A stretch of DNA of 64,000 bases, taken from IMG/VR virus record IMGVR_UViG_2531839524_000004. The stretch is one strand, 5' to 3'. This document shows positions 6,600 through 50,802 of the stretch, piece by piece (within the stretch, counting starts at the first letter, position 1; the number at the start of each line of letters is the position of its first letter). Under the pieces are notes generated by a model, which searched no databases, was not told the origin of the DNA, and saw nothing but the letters and a program-made list of their open reading frames with translations. This DNA is from a virus (lineage: Duplodnaviria > Heunggongvirae > Uroviricota > Caudoviricetes). A program made the translations under genes and the position numbers.

Positions 6600-7457
6600 C
6601 AATAAGTTATAGTTGTTTATACAATCAAGAAAACAACTGAATAACAGATCAACGAAACATCAACGCTTTCACCCGATTTGGTCTAAAAAATTGACGTTTT
6701 CACACATCACTGCTTATACCCGTAACTCTACGCAGCAGACAGCGCCACAGAGTCCAATTTTCACCACAGACGACTCAACACACTACCAACAAAAACACAC
6801 GCTCAAAATCGCTCCCGTTGCGTTACACAACCATATAAACAACATATTTTCAGGTATAACAAAACAACTAAATAACACATATGCCATTACCCAAAACAAC
6901 CAACCTCTTTATGGCAGGCTACCGAAAAGACCCACCTCTTCTCCCCAGGCTACCGGACAACCAACCTAACTTTCACAGGCAATCCGAAAACATTCATACG
7001 CGCGATACCCACGACACGCCATTACCCAAACAGCGAAGAAACACCTGAACCGCTGAAACCCCAACGAAGCCTGTAACCGCAAGGTTTCTCTCAATCCCAA
7101 AAGACACGAAACATAACAATCACGGGAAACGCCATTACCCAATACACGAATAACTACAAAAGCCTTTCACACACTCCAGACAAACAACTCAAACACAACA
7201 ACGAAAGGAATCGCCCACCTGCCATTACTCCATACACGGAGAAGAACAATCACCAAAACGACGAGAACACCCCATAGAAGAACCACCGCAAAACGAACGA
7301 AACCACATACACCGACAGAGAAAACAACACACCCAATTCACCAACAGAAATAGTCGCCGTATAGGACATTCTGGAAGGAGTGAGCATTAACGCCTATAGA
7401 GAGGTTGAGACAGATAAAACACAACATGTATAGCGAAGAAGCCAGGTATGTATAAGT
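6600..7457 (+). repeat. A+C-rich, G-poor non-coding region with four GCCATTAC(C/T)C-initiated repeat units
   Basis: Units begin at 6883, 7018, 7131 and 7221; the only ORF (6613-6969) translates to low-complexity T/Q/N/P/H sequence; strong strand asymmetry visible by eye. Confidence 0.6.
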
Positions 7458-7480
7458 GGGGAGGGAAGGAGGGGTGTCGC
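7458..7480 (+). terminator. intrinsic terminator closing the A+C-rich region
   Basis: ggagg-ggtgtcg-cctcc followed by TTTTT. Confidence 0.55.
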
Positions 7481-7553
7481 CTCCTTTTTCGTATTTATTC
7501 AACTCCTGATTTTATCCCCCCGTAACACCCCTACGGTCAGCCTTCGGTCCATA

Positions 7554-7696
7554 CAGGGAAAAGGCTGCATCCCGCTACAGAAACGGCTGGGTTGCCTTCG
7601 GGGAACGGCTGGAGGTTTTCAGGGAAACGGTCGAGTTGCCTGTGTGGATTTCGGGAAAAGGCTCGATGCCGGTTCAGGAACGGTGGCGTACCGGTA
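7554..7696. repeat. tandem array of about six degenerate 20-25 bp direct repeats (core GGGAAA(A/C)GGCT)
   Basis: cagggaaaaggctgcatcc / cagaaacggctgggttgcc / ggggaacggctggagg / agggaaacggtcgagttgcc / cgggaaaaggctcgatgcc / caggaacggtggcgtacc. Confidence 0.6.
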
Positions 7697-8017
7697 TAGC
7701 GAGAGGGAGAGTTGCGGCTACCCACCTGTAATGTGCGGGAAGAAGAGAGGCGCTCACGTAGGCGGACTTGCTTACCGCTGGATTCCCTCTGAATGCCCAG
7801 CTACAGCGTAATTGTGCCAGACAGCCAACGGGTCACAATCGATTTCAGTAGGTTTTTGGGGAGAGGATTACTCTGCCACCAGCCACTTTCGGCCACTAAA
7901 TCAGAATAATGTAAAAAGTGTACTCGGTACTGAACCTGAAAACTCACTGCCAAAACCACATTCACCGGAATAAAATCCTTTTTCGCCTGTGCGTTATTGC
8001 GATAATAACACCATCAA

Positions 8018-8032
8018 GAAAACATGTTGTTT
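8018..8032. promoter_or_regulatory. operator-like palindrome (variant GAAAACA-TG-TTGTTT)
   Basis: Immediately upstream of the RBS of gene 8045. Confidence 0.45.
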
Positions 8033-8044
8033 AAGGATTGCTTT

Positions 8045-8374
8045 ATGTTTACAAATATCGACATCAACCAAATCAAGAAATTAACTCAAAAAGAGTTTGA
8101 TCAGTTTTATGAGTTAGAAGGTTGGTCTTCCACTCTGATCAATTCAAGATGGGTGCTGGAACTGATGACTCGTGATGACGCACCTGCTTTGATGATCAGC
8201 GACCTGGGTGAAGATGCTGACTTTATGGATATGAGCGAATTTTGTGTGGACACATACAACCGCAGCCAGAAGTACTACTTCACATGCGATAGCGAAAATG
8301 ACGTGATTTCTAAGGTCTATCTTCACCTCGTCCAGCATTGGAACGTTCAGGAGTTTCTTGAAGTATTCGAGTAA
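8045..8374 (+). CDS. hypothetical acidic protein
   Basis: ORF track (8024-8374); start moved to MFTNIDI because ATG 8024 lies inside the operator motif and AAGGA RBS precedes 8045. Confidence 0.5.
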   Translation: MFTNIDINQIKKLTQKEFDQFYELEGWSSTLINSRWVLELMTRDDAPALMISDLGEDADFMDMSEFCVDTYNRSQKYYFTCDSENDVISKVYLHLVQHWNVQEFLEVFE

Positions 8375-8383
8375 CCCCAACCA

Positions 8384-8410
8384 AAGCCAGCATTGCTGGC
8401 TTAATTTCTC
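8384..8410 (+). terminator. hairpin after gene 8045-8374
   Basis: aagccagc-att-gctggctt followed by AATTTCTC (weak U-tract). Confidence 0.4.
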
Positions 8411-8501
8411 TATAGCCGCAGGGAAGAACCTGCATATAGCTCATGCACCTGATCAATATGCTTTGTAGCCGTTTTCTTACTGGTATTATTTACGCCATTG
8501 A

Positions 8502-8516
8502 GAAAACAAGTTGTTT
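8502..8516. promoter_or_regulatory. operator-like palindrome GAAAACAA-G-TTGTTT
   Basis: Abuts the RBS of gene 8528. Confidence 0.5.
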
Positions 8517-8527
8517 ACGGAGTTGTG

Positions 8528-8839
8528 ATGAAAAAATCATTGGTTCTTGGTCTGGACAAAGACCAGAAGAGAAAAGAGAAGCCTGCGCTGGTTGCTCAAT
8601 TAACTTTGCTGGACATCGTTGCCAATGGGACCTCTATTCGTCTGTTCCGTGAAACAGCGGTGTCTTTCGATAAAAACACCTTTACTCGTTATGTAATGAA
8701 TGTTCGTCGCCAGCGTGGAAAAGGCTGGGTGGCATTTCAAAGAATGTGGCCGGAACATCAGCTCGAACTTGCTTTGATGGAAGTTAACCGCGTGGCCCAG
8801 CAAGAGATTCAGAGAGCATCAGTGATGGCAATAGCCTGA
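8528..8839 (+). CDS. hypothetical basic protein
   Basis: ORF track (8498-8839); start moved to MKKSLVLG after RBS ACGGAG; lysine/arginine-rich. Confidence 0.5.
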   Translation: MKKSLVLGLDKDQKRKEKPALVAQLTLLDIVANGTSIRLFRETAVSFDKNTFTRYVMNVRRQRGKGWVAFQRMWPEHQLELALMEVNRVAQQEIQRASVMAIA

Positions 8840-8873
8840 TAATGTGCAAGTGGTAATTAGTCGACCGTACGAC

Positions 8874-8902
8874 AGCCCCGCCATCCTTACGGGGCTTTTT
8901 TG
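8874..8902 (+). terminator. intrinsic terminator
   Basis: agccccg-ccatccttac-ggggct followed by TTTTTT. Confidence 0.6.
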
Positions 8903-8965
8903 TATTGTAAGTACATACTTACGATCATAGAATAGAAAAATAACCAATACACTACGGAGAGTGAA

Positions 8966-9361
8966 ATGACCGCTAAACGCGAAAAACTGACAGTTGATGT
9001 TTACTATGCCTCTGAAACCGCCGAAGGTAAGAATGTGGCAAAAATCACCGTTGTTACGTACAACACCGAAACTGGTGCCGAAGTCCAGGCCAGTACGATC
9101 GTGCGTAAAGGTGATGCCTCCGGCGGCGAGTACGCGACTCAATACCAGTCTATTTTCGATGCAACTGACCCGCTGCTGCTGAAAATCGAGAACTACTTCC
9201 GCCAGGTTGATGAAGAGGTGTTTGAAACCATGATGAATATGGTTAACACCGTATTCGCCTCCAGCCTGAATACCAACACTACCTGGATTGGTCAGTACGG
9301 CCTGCGCATTACCTCCGGCATTCCTGCTGACACCTTAATCCCTGAAAGCGTATTCGCTTAA
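8966..9361 (+). CDS. hypothetical protein
   Basis: ORF track, 131 aa; RBS ACGGAGAG upstream. Confidence 0.55.
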   Translation: MTAKREKLTVDVYYASETAEGKNVAKITVVTYNTETGAEVQASTIVRKGDASGGEYATQYQSIFDATDPLLLKIENYFRQVDEEVFETMMNMVNTVFASSLNTNTTWIGQYGLRITSGIPADTLIPESVFA

Positions 9362-9370
9362 TCCTCTTTG

Positions 9371-9398
9371 AATGGCGCGTAAACCGCGCCATTTTCTT
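9371..9398 (+). terminator. intrinsic terminator
   Basis: aatggcgcg-taaac-cgcgccatt followed by TTCTT. Confidence 0.55.
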
Positions 9399-9405
9399 AT
9401 GCCCG

Positions 9406-9420
9406 ATAACAATTTGTTTT
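9406..9420. promoter_or_regulatory. operator-like palindrome ATAACAA-T-TTGTTTT
   Basis: Shares the extended sequence AACAATTTGTTTTCTGCC with the 5172 copy. Confidence 0.5.
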
Positions 9421-9478
9421 CTGCCTTATCTGATTTGTGAAAATGATTTCACTGAAGCAACTTAATAAGGAAACCATC

Positions 9479-9853
9479 ATGGGACTTGATATCTATATCG
9501 AGACACAGCCTAAAAACGATCTGAATAACGAGGCATCCAGAAAGCAGGTTGCTTACTTCCGTAAGTTCAATGCGCTCGTTGGGTGGATGGAGCGCAACGT
9601 AGGTGAAGTCGAAAATTGTGAGCTTTTAGAATTAACGATGAATGACATTTGTTTTCTGAAGGCTCATTTGATGCACATAAACGAAAGTAATTGCGAAGAG
9701 TACTTGCCTACCCGGGAAGGTTTTTTCTTCGGCAGTCAGGAGTACGATGAAGGTTACTGGCATGATGTGGGGCAGTTGAAAGAGCTTGTGGAAGATCTGA
9801 TTAAGAACCACGACTTTCACAATAACAGACTGACCTTCTGCGCCTGGTGGTAA
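9479..9853 (+). CDS. hypothetical protein
   Basis: ORF track (9437-9853); start moved to MGLDIYIETQ after RBS AAGGAAACC. Confidence 0.5.
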   Translation: MGLDIYIETQPKNDLNNEASRKQVAYFRKFNALVGWMERNVGEVENCELLELTMNDICFLKAHLMHINESNCEEYLPTREGFFFGSQEYDEGYWHDVGQLKELVEDLIKNHDFHNNRLTFCAWW

Positions 9854-9855
9854 AT

Positions 9856-9999
9856 ATGGGCGATTTCAAGAAACGCCTGAAGGAAAGAGCCGAGATGGTC
9901 AGAAAGCAAAACGCCTCTTCTGTCATCAGATACGCAAGGCAGTTTAGTCGCAACAACAAATCAGTTGAGGAAAAGATCCTTAGCGTAATCGGGCGATAA
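9856..9999 (+). CDS. hypothetical small basic protein (47 aa)
   Basis: Own translation MGDFKKRLKERAEMVRKQNASSVIRYARQFSRNNKSVEEKILSVIGR; starts 3 nt after the previous stop; below ORF-track cut-off. Confidence 0.3.
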   Translation: MGDFKKRLKERAEMVRKQNASSVIRYARQFSRNNKSVEEKILSVIGR

Positions 10000-10049
10000 T
10001 TATTAAGGCCATCAGCATTGGTGGCCTTAAATGACCATCTTGTTTCCCG

Positions 10050-10134
10050 CAGGCTAAAAACACCAACCTCTTCCCTCCAGGCAACCGACAAACCCACCTG
10101 TTCCCGTCCGGCTACCGTAACTTTCCACTTTGAC
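10050..10134. repeat. second, shorter copy of the A+C-rich element seen at 6893-6990
   Basis: Shares ...aaaacaccaacctctt..caggc.accg..acccacct.ttc..c.ggctaccg... blocks with 6893-6990. Confidence 0.5.
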
Positions 10135-10168
10135 GCCTTATTCGTACAACGATAATTAACGCCAACAA

Positions 10169-10183
10169 GAAAACAATTTGTTA
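10169..10183. promoter_or_regulatory. operator-like palindrome GAAAACAA-T-TTGTTA
   Basis: 20 bp upstream of ATG 10204, RBS AAGGAA between. Confidence 0.5.
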
Positions 10184-10203
10184 TTTACGATAAGGAATTA
10201 ATC

Positions 10204-10686
10204 ATGAATTTTATCGCTACTGTAAACGCACCCGCACATGGCAATATCGCTGTAACGTTCTCTGACATTGAAAAACGAGTACTTGGTGCATGGCGCGACA
10301 ATGAGACGGTAGAACTGTCAGCACAAGAAAAATGCATTATTGCACGCGACATCATTGGCAATCGTCGTTACTCGCGGGTATTTGAGAAAGCGTATGTGGT
10401 AAATTCTGGATTCGGAACGTTCGTCTTTCCGGTGCGCTCCGGGCGATTCTGCCAGTCCAAGCTGATTGAGTTCGCTACGCAGATTTCTGTCTGGATTAAA
10501 ACTCAATCGTCGTTCAAATTTTCCGACGATGAAGCAGTATCGCAGGGGATGCGGATCGCCAACAATGCAATTAAATGCAAAAACATTACGTATACCGCTG
10601 GCGTTGATACATGGAAACTGTTTTGCGCTAACTTTATGCTGAATGTATACGCAAGCAACCGCATCCACATCCTTGATGGCGTGTAA
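10204..10686 (+). CDS. hypothetical protein
   Basis: ORF track, 160 aa. Confidence 0.55.
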   Translation: MNFIATVNAPAHGNIAVTFSDIEKRVLGAWRDNETVELSAQEKCIIARDIIGNRRYSRVFEKAYVVNSGFGTFVFPVRSGRFCQSKLIEFATQISVWIKTQSSFKFSDDEAVSQGMRIANNAIKCKNITYTAGVDTWKLFCANFMLNVYASNRIHILDGV

Positions 10687-10694
10687 CTGAGAAG

Positions 10695-10850
10695 AGGGCC
10701 AGAAACGGCCCTTTATCTATAGCCACCAGCTGCCGCAGGGAAATTTTCAGAAACGGCGAGGAACGTATTCATGAGCCGACGGGAAACGGCCAGGATTTTT
10801 TTCGGGAAACGGCTGCATTCGCCTTTATGTAGAAAAAACATCGGGAAGCT
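10695..10850. repeat. second array of GGGAAACGGC-type direct repeats
   Basis: ccagaaacggccc / cagggaaattttc / agaaacggcgagg / cgggaaacggccagg / cgggaaacggctgc; first unit doubles as a terminator-like hairpin (agggcc-agaaac-ggccct). Confidence 0.5.
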
Positions 10851-11278
10851 GGTGGAATCCAACCAGCGGTTGTCGGACAGGTGAGCGGGGAAAATTATGA
10901 TGACTTTCGTCGCCTGAGACATCCAGATTTCTTTCGTAGCATAATCACATACGTGATTAAGTGGTGTGATTATGTGAAAAATCACGCGCACATAATACGC
11001 GAGCGGATACGGAACAAAACAAAATGCCGATCCGCGCCGACAAATAAACGCGGATCACATAGCAAGACTAAAAGCCAATGATTAACCATATTCTATAGCG
11101 CAATATAACGCGTTTTAAGCGCGTTAATGTGTTAAGTAATGGGTATGTACTGGCAAGGATATAAAAGCGCGTCTATGGCGTCATTTTGGCGCTTATTTTT
11201 ATGTTGTTGGAGTGAGTTAAAGACAATAAAAAACGCGCCAATGATGGCGCGTTATGGTGGGAGTATTGGAAACGAAAA

Positions 11279-11297
11279 AGCGCCCATAGTGGGCGCT
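11279..11297 (-). terminator. hairpin AGCGCCCA-tag-TGGGCGCT, copy 1 (end of the minus-strand operon)
   Basis: 8-bp stem; on the minus strand it is followed by TTTTTCG; sits directly 3' of the 76-aa gene. Confidence 0.55.
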
Positions 11298-11302
11298 CGA
11301 TT

Positions 11303-13051: not shown

Positions 13052-13576
13052 TCAAAAAGGCAAAATTCGTTCAACCCAATCGAACAAAACAACTATTTTT
13101 CTACCGTTCTCGACACGTAGTGTAACCTGACAAGCATCTGCGCCTGCTGACACCCCCTCAATTTCACGGCCATCCGCCATGTACACCCTTATAGATTTGT
13201 TTGCTTTGTAGGCTTGGTTGCAAATTGCAAAAAAATCGCGGCGTGATGGCCGATTATCGACATAATCAGGGTGAACTGTTAGTCGACCTTTGAAATCGTG
13301 TGCGATACTGTCAACCACACCTGATTCAATTGTACTAATGCGTTCAAGTGGGAGCCTTATACGATTTTCTTTGTCAAAAGGGGCTGGGCAAAGGTCAACT
13401 TTGTTACGAGATGGCATGAGGCCATAAACGTACATGCAAAACGCCTGGCCATCTTCGAGAGTGACCCTTACAGGAATTTGTTCTCTGCGCCAGAACATCA
13501 GTAGTTTTTCAACGTTAGTGTAATCTCGCGGCCAGAGTTCAGCTTGGATACCGTAGGTAATATCTTTGGTTGTCAT
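13052..13576 (-). CDS. hypothetical protein
   Basis: ORF track gives 13052-13654; start set at the internal Met (MTTKDITYG) to avoid overlap with the upstream lipoprotein gene. Confidence 0.45.
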   Translation of the reverse strand: MTTKDITYGIQAELWPRDYTNVEKLLMFWRREQIPVRVTLEDGQAFCMYVYGLMPSRNKVDLCPAPFDKENRIRLPLERISTIESGVVDSIAHDFKGRLTVHPDYVDNRPSRRDFFAICNQAYKANKSIRVYMADGREIEGVSAGADACQVTLRVENGRKIVVLFDWVERILPF

Positions 13577-13580
13577 GTCA

Positions 13581-14003
13581 TCACAGAGTTGTTGGCAGAA
13601 TGTCGATGTCACCAGAATTGCTGGTGAACACCCTGAACGCTTTTGTGTCTCCATTCTTCAGAGTCGTTTCTCGCTCTTGACGAGCGGGGTTTAGAGCACA
13701 TAAACCTGCACCTTCAAGAGATGCACCCACAATTAATTCTCCGGCATTTAAATGGAAAGTCGCTTTTTCGCCTGTAGCCAGTTTTGCGACAGTTTCGCCG
13801 TTGATGAAAATGGAAGCATCACATCCAGCTCCTACAAAACCTGTGTCTCTCATTACCACCAACGTAGCTGGCGCTGCGCTTTGATACTTGAACACTTTGG
13901 CCTGCGGTGCTGGTTTGGCGTCATGGATTGATATTGGGCGTGATTGGCACGCGGTAAGCATCAACACTGGTAACGTTAGTAGAGGGAGAAGCGAGTATTT
14001 CAT
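13581..14003 (-). CDS. putative lipoprotein
   Basis: ORF track (13581-14045); start at MKYSLLPLLTLPVLMLTAC gives a signal peptide ending in lipobox LTAC. Confidence 0.55.
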   Translation of the reverse strand: MKYSLLPLLTLPVLMLTACQSRPISIHDAKPAPQAKVFKYQSAAPATLVVMRDTGFVGAGCDASIFINGETVAKLATGEKATFHLNAGELIVGASLEGAGLCALNPARQERETTLKNGDTKAFRVFTSNSGDIDILPTTL

Positions 14004-19366: not shown

Positions 19367-19999
19367 ATGACGGTCGAAAAAGACGAGGTAAAAACTCGCC
19401 TGACACCAGCGGAGTGGGCCGAAGCTGAAGCCAAATGGACGTCAGGCGAATATACACTCTCAAAGCTGGAGGAAGAGTACGGCATTCGTCGTGAAACACT
19501 CTCCAGACATTTCAAAAAGCGAGGATTAGAGAAAGGCGCGGACTCTGTTGGGAAGATGGTTCGTGAGTCTCTTAAATCTGACGCAGAGCTTCGCGCTAAA
19601 GCCCGTGCGGAAAAGATAGAAGAACGTCGTACACGTTATGACGGCTGGGCGTATGCGTTGGGGCAGATGGTGATGGTCGAAGTCACTACGGCCAAACGTG
19701 AGGGTAAGCCTTTAGGGGCGATTGAGGATTCTCTCAAGAGCTTACAGAGAGCCAGTAATACCCTTGCAAAATGCTTTGAAGTTTCGTCCAAAGCATTGGG
19801 CATGGATCATGCGGAAAATGACGAGGAAGAAATTCCGAACCTGGTATTTGGTGAGCTTACGCCTTCCCAGGTGGCGAAATTACGTCAGGAAGACGACGAG
19901 CCTGAAATCATCGATGACGAATTGCTTGAGACGTTGGAAGAAGAAGCTCTAAGCGAATTTGATGCGACAGATGATGGAAGTGAAGGGGAGGACGAATAA
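19367..19999 (+). CDS. terminase small subunit (putative)
   Basis: 210 aa directly upstream of the large terminase; N-terminal HTH-like region and acidic tail; call by position. Confidence 0.6.
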   Translation: MTVEKDEVKTRLTPAEWAEAEAKWTSGEYTLSKLEEEYGIRRETLSRHFKKRGLEKGADSVGKMVRESLKSDAELRAKARAEKIEERRTRYDGWAYALGQMVMVEVTTAKREGKPLGAIEDSLKSLQRASNTLAKCFEVSSKALGMDHAENDEEEIPNLVFGELTPSQVAKLRQEDDEPEIIDDELLETLEEEALSEFDATDDGSEGEDE

Positions 20000-48787: not shown

Positions 48788-49456
48788 ATGACCAAGATCT
48801 TTGTGGTTGGCGGCACAAAGGGCGGGCCTGGCAAATCCACCGTTGCCCAGCAAATTGCCGTTTGCCTGAAAGTCAAAAAGAAGAAGAAGGTTTATATCAC
48901 TGATATAGATATTCAGCGCACGACAACAAGCTGGTGTGAAGACCGTCGACAGAACGAAGACCTTGAGCTGATTCCTTTTGCATACGTTCAGGATGACATC
49001 ATTAAGCACCTAAAATCGCTTCAGGGTAGAGCTGAGTTTGTAGTGGTAGATGCTGGTGGCTTTGACTCCGAAATTCAGCGACAAGCGATGCTGATGGCCG
49101 ACGTTATCATTATCCCGCTGCGTCCTAAGCGTCGTGATTTGAAATCTTTACGTGACATCGATCCTATTATCGACAATGTTCGTAATGTAAACGATAAAGT
49201 GAAGGTCCGCGCGGTCATGAACCAGTGCCCGGCTTTGCCATCACAAGTGTCTCGCATTTTGGCGGCTAAAGAGATTGTCGAGACGTTTGGCATCGAGTCT
49301 GCGCCAGTCAATTTATATAACCGCAACGTCTATGATGATGCGGAAGAGTCTGGTCGTTCTATCTTTGAAATGACCGGTAGCGAGCGCGACAAAAAGGCGG
49401 AAGCCGAGTTTGAAGAATTTGTAGATTATCTGTTGAGTCTGGAGGAAGAAGAATAA
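48788..49456 (+). CDS. ParA-type partition ATPase
   Basis: Deviant Walker A GGTKGGPGKST, Walker B-like FVVVDAGG; 222 aa. Confidence 0.85.
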   Translation: MTKIFVVGGTKGGPGKSTVAQQIAVCLKVKKKKKVYITDIDIQRTTTSWCEDRRQNEDLELIPFAYVQDDIIKHLKSLQGRAEFVVVDAGGFDSEIQRQAMLMADVIIIPLRPKRRDLKSLRDIDPIIDNVRNVNDKVKVRAVMNQCPALPSQVSRILAAKEIVETFGIESAPVNLYNRNVYDDAEESGRSIFEMTGSERDKKAEAEFEEFVDYLLSLEEEE

Positions 49457-50745: not shown

Positions 50746-50802
50746 CCTGCTTCTGTATATATAAATAATAAGTAACTTATTAAATATATATACGGAAGCA
50801 GG
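50746..50802. repeat. 57-bp AT-rich palindromic repeat, copy 2
   Basis: Identical to 19193-19249; lies in the divergent promoter region between the GIY-YIG gene and gene 50910. Confidence 0.8.

Follow-up and report, generated by a model that had tools for sequence, protein, structure and literature searches.

Two conserved, transcription-shielded arrays of 22-nt direct repeats as candidate iteron-type sites in SSU5-like phage-plasmids

Rows of short direct repeats are known from several kinds of cis-acting site. The iterons of lambda-type phage origins lie inside the initiator gene, and in P4 (ori/crr), P1 (incC/incA) and R6K the initiator gene is known and lies between or beside two repeat clusters. 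The centromere of pSK41 is made of 20-bp repeats, the phage-plasmid N15 has dispersed centromeres far from its par operon, and known sites of small terminases (TerS) are rows of short direct repeats as well, for example the R sites of lambda cosB. Here, we describe two arrays of direct repeats, array 1 and array 2, which lie 3.1 kb apart in a 64,000-nucleotide (nt) stretch of DNA from a virus of the Caudoviricetes (IMG/VR record IMGVR_UViG_2531839524_000004); the whole stretch is called the window below. Region 6600-11100 was 98% identical to the Escherichia phages CMS-2020a and Cyrano, and the Salmonella phage SSU5 was a more distant relative. Therefore, the window was assigned to an SSU5-like phage-plasmid. 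Such phage-plasmids are frequent in clinical Klebsiella, E. coli, Enterobacter and Salmonella and are also carriers of resistance genes, and little has been reported on their replication and maintenance. No paper describing the arrays was found in a literature search.

A preliminary description of the window, made from its letters alone, had claimed two arrays of degenerate repeats, and both were recovered in place (Table 1). Aligned on their 3' ends, the units share an invariant core, the 7-mer G-R-A-A-M-G-G (GGGAAACGG-type motif). The six units claimed for array 1 were confirmed; their register proved tighter than the 20-25 bp first given, with core spacings of 22, 22, 22, 31 and 22 nt. Beyond the core, most array 1 units run on as GGY-N5-7-RCC. 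For array 2, the "about five" units were reduced to three clear units and a degenerate one, since the supposed unit at 10702 consists of the loop and 3' arm of the preceding terminator hairpin; that loop carries an extra copy of the motif. The final unit of array 2 closes with the dyad GGC-tgcattc-GCC, and one conserved unit per array (CAGAAACGG) is without any GGA. The sequence GGGAAACGGC was matched 12 times in the 64 kb at no more than one mismatch, compared with 3.2 matches expected, and half of these matches (6 of 12) were inside the arrays; none of 100 shuffles equalled the count. A looser motif gave 9 matches per 200 bp in array 1 and 6 in array 2, where the maximum in 200 shuffles was 4. 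Scanning the rest of the element with the consensus core, as had been proposed, left these two clusters as the only ones in the ~109-kb genome: no other was found in the window or in the remaining 45 kb, on either strand. Tandem Repeats Finder called neither array because the spacers are unrelated. A dyad of at least 3 bp that includes the GG of the core was present in 55% of 137 unique units compared with 28 ± 4% with shuffled spacers, and the core GG tends to be followed by CC 5-8 nt later. The dyad arms are conserved and do not covary, a pattern more in keeping with a short symmetric recognition site than with base pairing.

Conservation was assessed in the plasmid collection PLSDB and in 86 loci retrieved with the 160-amino-acid (aa) gene adjoining array 2 as anchor. 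The arrays were conserved in related phage-plasmids, one of the checks named at the outset: in PLSDB, 717 plasmids had a detectable array 1 and 766 an array 2, with Klebsiella, Escherichia, Enterobacter, Salmonella, Citrobacter and Cronobacter as hosts; the plasmids with array 2 include 55 Yersinia records. Distant relatives were also seen in Morganella, Xenorhabdus, Pectobacterium and Raoultella. Both arrays were present in 62 of the 86 loci, none of which had a cluster of cores on the minus strand. The Yersinia pestis pMT1 plasmids retain array 2 and are without array 1. In 70 unique sequences of array 1, 218 of 277 neighboring cores were spaced by exactly 22 nt and the remainder mostly by 31 or 44 nt; relatives vary by gain or loss of whole 22-nt units. 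Identity to the window in 13 divergent relatives was 88% for the cores and 58% for the spacers. Even the most divergent relative found, L210, in which the 160-aa protein is 51% identical, has kept the order A+C-rich stretch, hairpin, array 1, small genes, 160-aa gene, terminator, array 2, FljA-like gene, helicase and ParB_N genes. The arrays are real and ancient within the SSU5-like family, with selection on the motif and in most members also on the spacing.

Each array lies directly behind a homologous purine-rich hairpin with a T-run. The hairpin 5' of array 1 was retained by RNAalifold, with changes from G-U to A-U or G-C pairs, and the place of the array 2 hairpin is taken in relatives by GGGGC-TGGAAAC-GCCCC followed by TTTCTTTT. 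The conserved block that precedes array 1 is ordered as GTATAAGTGGGGAGGGAAGGAGGGG, the hairpin, a ~35-nt A+T-rich stretch, ATCCCCCCGTAAC and CGGTCAGCCTTCGG. On its other side, array 2 sits where plus- and minus-strand operons converge and is closed off by further terminators (Table 1). With terminators on every incoming side, the arrays more likely work as transcription-free DNA than as RNA. In published RNA sequencing of the LF82 lysogen, an open reading frame (ORF) drawn over array 1 was at ~14 units and the A+C-rich element at floor level.

The shared locus order of the preliminary description was upheld in part: an A+C-rich triple repeat lies 5' of each array, and a hairpin with T-run precedes each. 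Its "transcription unit" holds for locus 2, where it is the 160-aa gene, and fails for locus 1, where only the A+C-rich non-coding stretch itself occupies the place. This stretch of 740 nt is strongly short of G and T on the plus strand, with 12 consecutive 300-nt windows above 0.65 A+C. It contains four GCCATTACCCAA-type repeats, is downstream of a promoter-like TTGACG-17-TTATAC at 6692-6720, and is kept in SSU5, in Klebsiella-type relatives and in L210. A partial copy of the triple repeat (CGGCTACCCACCTGT) was seen after array 1, at 7715-7729. Boxes of TATAG or TATAAG followed by a purine-rich G run (CCGTATAGG, CCTATAGAGAGG, GTATAAGTGGGG, GGTATAGCGAGAGGGAG) occur at 7356-7410, 7448-7460 and 7690-7705; they superficially resemble the ends of T7-type promoters, and no gene for a single-subunit RNA polymerase was noticed. 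Between array 2 and the minus-strand terminators, at 10940-11000, lies an inverted-repeat cluster of ATAATCACA/TGTGATTAT that is partly kept in SSU5.

Table 1. Positions of the arrays and of other features in the window, or in the sequence named
Feature	Position	Strand	Remarks
Array 1	7554-7696	+	Six 22-nt units
Array 1 cores	7558-7564, 7580-7586, 7602-7608, 7624-7630, 7655-7661, 7677-7683	+	
Array 2	10736-10824	+	Three clear units and one degenerate unit
Array 2 cores	10750-10756, 10783-10789, 10806-10812	+	Spacings 33 and 23 nt
Degenerate array 2 unit GGGAAATTT	10738	+	
Most conserved block of array 1 locus	7448-7553	+	Only part detectable by BLAST in Klebsiella relatives
Purine-rich hairpin with T-run, terminator-like	7463-7490	+	10-pair stem; ~65 nt 5' of array 1
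Hairpin GGGCC-AGAAAC-GGCCC, then TTTATCT	10690-10718	+	End of 160-aa gene; loop holds one motif copy
Four terminator-like hairpins	10985-11298	-	Shut array 2 off from convergent operon
A+C-rich non-coding element	6600-7340	+	A+C up to 0.77; no gene called by PGAP (Prokaryotic Genome Annotation Pipeline)
Triple ~30-nt repeat (ACCNACCT...CAGGCTACCG), copy 1	6891-6982	+	
Triple ~30-nt repeat, copy 2	10040-10125	+	Directly 5' of 160-aa gene promoter
160-aa gene	10204-10686	+	Always precedes array 2; family restricted to these phage-plasmids
FljA-family 200-aa protein	13055-13654	-	PF03614 Flag1_repress, E 2.5e-84; weak Hfq-like C-terminal match
Chi site CCACCAGC	10723-10730	-	
Chi site GCTGGTGG	10848-10855	+	
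Chi site	7876-7883	-	
GAAAACAAGTTGTTT boxes	5171, 5222, 6837, 8018, 8502, 9405, 10169, 13087, 14323, 19287, 19312, 48738, 51669		In the window
ParA gene, type Ib	48788-49456		~38 kb from arrays
A+T-rich near-perfect palindrome, 28-nt arms	50746-50802		Upstream of 249-aa gene and DnaB-type helicase
RepA origin region	L088 17300-19400 = Cyrano 60.3-62.4 kb		P1-like origin and copy-control layout
Lambda-type iterons GAAACGGC-N6-GCCG	L101 887-1010; also L147, L096, L128, L136		Inside O-like genes

As in iterons of the Rep type, which are direct repeats of 17-22 bp in regular register, the units of array 1 keep a step of mostly 22 nt. A DnaA-box-like TGTGGATTT at 7644-7652 is present in E. coli-type relatives only. 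Replication control had been one of the two functions first considered plausible. The repA gene is outside the window (60.6-61.7 kb in Cyrano), ~33 kb from the arrays, and is flanked on both sides by classical 21-bp iterons (TCTCTATAGTGGATA) together with DnaA boxes and GATC runs. No GRAAMGG clusters were found around repA. Since RepA has its own, unrelated iterons at that distance, the GGGAAACGG arrays are not RepA iterons, and control of replication through RepA was dropped as their function. Two further marks of an origin at array 2 were rejected: a genome-wide split in Chi orientation at the array was not significant (permutation p = 0.43), and GC skew tracks transcription. Chi sites number 13 in the 64 kb, compared with 1.3 expected, a density that is host-like; the pair around array 2 faces inward and is conserved in most relatives.

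Viral contigs were also scanned for three cores at 22-nt spacing. The scan returned SSU5-like elements and, in addition, unrelated phages with GAAAC-GGC-N6-GCC units every 22 bp. In these unrelated contigs (Table 1), the repeats are part of a gene, and GATC/A+T-rich DNA comes after them. PHROGs scored the repeat-bearing genes as "replication initiation O-like", which identifies the repeats as lambda-type origins. As a further observation on these contigs, the iterons are translated as repeated peptide motifs. The same unit form recurs in many units of both arrays, among them GAAACGGC-tgggtt-GCC and GAAAAGGC-tcgat-GCC.

The anatomy of the arrays is iteron- or centromere-like, as the preliminary description had proposed, with direct orientation, a 22-bp register, conserved cores, free spacers and insulation by terminators. 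We tentatively favor the reading that the arrays are paralogous cis-acting sites of the iteron type on duplex DNA that bind one sequence-specific protein cooperatively, most likely in a replication-type role. Each array would be a row of putative sites for this protein, which is probably dimeric and probably encoded by the phage-plasmid, and which would recognize GAAAC plus the short dyad (GGY-N5-7-RCC). The step from one site to the next is about two turns of the helix, which would place all bound proteins on the same face of the DNA, and their cooperative assembly may give a bent or wrapped nucleoprotein complex. The same protein could bridge the two arrays across the 3.1 kb, and the terminators would keep the element free of transcription. 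Such an iteron-type element would be comparable to the repeats of lambda-type phage origins or to P4 ori/crr, and would most likely serve as a site where a replication-type complex assembles apart from the plasmid replication driven by RepA, such as a lytic origin or an enhancer of one.

Several observations weigh against this reading. No candidate binder of the arrays was found: the 160-aa protein has a confident predicted fold that matches no solved fold, and the 249-aa protein was likened at best to a helicase loader of the gp59 type. An O-like initiator is absent from the genome by tblastn, hidden Markov model (HMM) search and hhalign (probability 0.3%), so that a hidden initiator of this kind was rejected; the arrays, non-coding according to PGAP, are not situated inside an O gene as lambda-type iterons are. 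The palindrome beside the helicase and primase genes (Table 1) is a rival candidate for the lytic origin. The geometry of the dyad is variable, with spacers of 5 to 8 nt, which is unusual for a rigid dimeric DNA-binding protein. The flanks of the arrays are not A+T-rich, except for the 35-nt block (~7490-7515) located ~40 nt 5' of array 1. Finally, L210 keeps the GAAACGG cores but spaces them by 24, 28 and 34 nt, and strict helical phasing in a 22-nt register is therefore not universal.

Among other roles for the arrays, that of a centromere comes second and is rather unlikely. As centromeres, the arrays would serve the type Ib ParA and its 119-aa partner (48.8-49.8 kb) in partition from a place far from the par operon, like the dispersed centromeres of N15. 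The LF82 element is a low-copy plasmid with 5.5 copies per cell, centromeres are typically shielded from transcription, no repeat array was found adjoining parA, and the PLSDB plasmids with ParA are almost the same as those with the arrays (Klebsiella, Escherichia, Enterobacter, Salmonella). The exception is the 55 Yersinia pMT1 records, which have array 2 and no match to this ParA at E ≤ 1e-60. Moreover, the arrays are 38 kb from parA, neither adjoining the par operon nor in its promoter, and the parA promoter contains no GRAAMGG site and hence no sign of the usual autoregulation. Given the distance and the pMT1 plasmids, the link to ParA partition suggested in the preliminary description was not substantiated. 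The same applies to the ParB-like proteins that it had named as possible binders: the two ParB_N proteins form the head of an operon of ParB_N, ATPase and terminase genes that begins near 16 kb, and nothing links them to the arrays. It is also quite unlikely that the arrays serve as a boundary or roadblock, in which a protein array behind each intrinsic terminator stops read-through or loops out the 3.1-kb repressor-controlled cluster of small genes. The homologous terminator module before each array agrees with this, as do the five or six small genes enclosed, several with their own promoter and four with a GAAAACAAGTTGTTT box just upstream, and the position of array 2 between convergent operons. 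However, the arrays do not overlap promoters, no binder was found, and pMT1 keeps one array only. It is very improbable that the small terminase binds the arrays as a pac or cosB-like site for packaging. Rows of short direct repeats in non-coding DNA recall known TerS sites, but the arrays are 8.5-12 kb upstream of terS (19367-19999), with array 2 at 8.5 kb, neither beside nor within the gene; moreover, there are two of them, and array 2 is kept in the pMT1 plasmid.

The arrays were also considered as coding sequence and as RNA. ORFs over array 1 are annotated in Cyrano and SSU5, but PGAP called no gene there, and the 22-nt unit indels and a 1-nt difference in a C-run break the frame, which ruled out a coding function. 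For an array of RNA hairpins, compensatory stem changes that seemed visible by eye were not upheld by folding and covariation tests: the folding z-scores (-1.98, -1.40 and +0.35) were close to those of shuffled sequence, RNAalifold gave only weak structure with a covariation term of -0.5 kcal/mol, and no Rfam family matched the arrays at the gathering threshold or at E ≤ 10. The 22-nt units are degenerate and without separate spacers, and no cas genes occur in the annotated neighborhood, in agreement with the initial statement that this is not a CRISPR array. A role at the RNA level is less likely than one at the DNA level, and it is unlikely in its specific form, in which read-through transcripts with single-stranded rows of GAAACGG would bind or titrate an RNA-binding protein, either the FljA-family protein or host CsrA. 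The density of GGA speaks for CsrA; for the FljA-family protein, it can be said that its gene is 2.2 kb away at a constant relative position in 79 of 86 loci, that FljA proteins repress translation of fliC mRNA, and that array 2 has ACGGCGA and GAGCCGACGGG in common with the E. coli fliC leader. In favor of an RNA role are also the location of every unit on one strand and the flexible spacing in L210. Nevertheless, the arrays are downstream and not upstream of the terminators, no conserved promoter feeds them, RNA levels in the lysogen are low, the GGA-free unit in each array is conserved, and Rfam gave no match to CsrB or Rsm. The likeness to fliC is not significant, as other windows scored as high as or higher than its 27, and the best match fell inside a coding region. 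A mimic of the fliC leader was accordingly rejected; although an 11-mer is indeed shared, the alignment does not stand out within the window by its score. Also improbable is the proposal that the whole 1.6-kb non-coding locus forms one transcription-primed lytic origin, T4-like, acting via an R-loop. From first to last, its elements would be a promoter preceded by an operator-like box, a 700-nt G/T-poor untranslated transcript, a G-rich hairpin, an A+T-rich block and six phased repeats. The genome encodes UvsX/UvsY/gp32-like proteins, a UvsW-like helicase and a possible gp59-like loader. In such an origin, array 1 would recruit an unrecognized factor, with array 2 as its distal partner, like crr in P4.

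In annotated relatives, the surroundings of the arrays are a block of small hypothetical genes with a minus-strand operon on the right. The palindromic box GAAAACAAGTTGTTT has 18 matches at no more than two mismatches, compared with 0.33 expected by chance. Several small genes, as well as terS, parA and the helicase gene, have it directly 5' of their start codon, and the box resembles an operator for a global regulator. The FljA-family gene lies ~2 kb from the 160-aa gene and array 2; the 7 of 86 loci without an FljA match, SSU5 (L003) among them, are mostly short or truncated at an end. In the LF82 RNA sequencing, the gene rose from ~18 units to roughly 130-270 in other conditions. The protein may be a phage-plasmid-borne repressor of host flagellin translation.

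Repeat arrays that are deeply conserved and transcription-shielded, with no link to ParA or to the known RepA origin, mark a cis-acting function not described in the papers found. The identity of the binder would reveal how SSU5-like elements pass between the plasmid and the lytic mode of replication, or the way in which they are segregated, and would also offer a handle for incompatibility or curing.

Compared with known systems, the arrays resemble the CsrB/RsmZ-type sponge RNAs in having many short GGA-containing repeats ~20 nt apart. However, they lack a surrounding gene structure from promoter to terminator and lie behind terminators, they fold weakly, and their conserved part is AAMGG and not GGA. 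With the direct-repeat centromeres of R1 (parC), pSK41, pB171 (parC1/parC2) and N15, they have in common the short repeat rows, sometimes in two sets, kept free of transcription, and probably also cooperative binding, whereas those centromeres usually lie beside the par operon or in its promoter. The lambda-type O-gene iterons share the tandem direct repeats, the 22-bp period, the GAAAC-GGC-N6-GCC form, the free inner spacer and a number of 3 to 5 copies; they differ in their position inside the initiator gene ahead of GATC/A+T-rich DNA, whereas the SSU5-like arrays are intergenic with G+C-rich flanks and without an O-like protein. In P4, P1 and R6K the initiator is encoded close to the clusters, whereas the RepA of SSU5-like elements has different iterons ~33 kb away. 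The likeness to these three replicons is that two clusters of one repeat lie a few kilobases apart on one replicon, which suggests that the two arrays are bridged by one protein.

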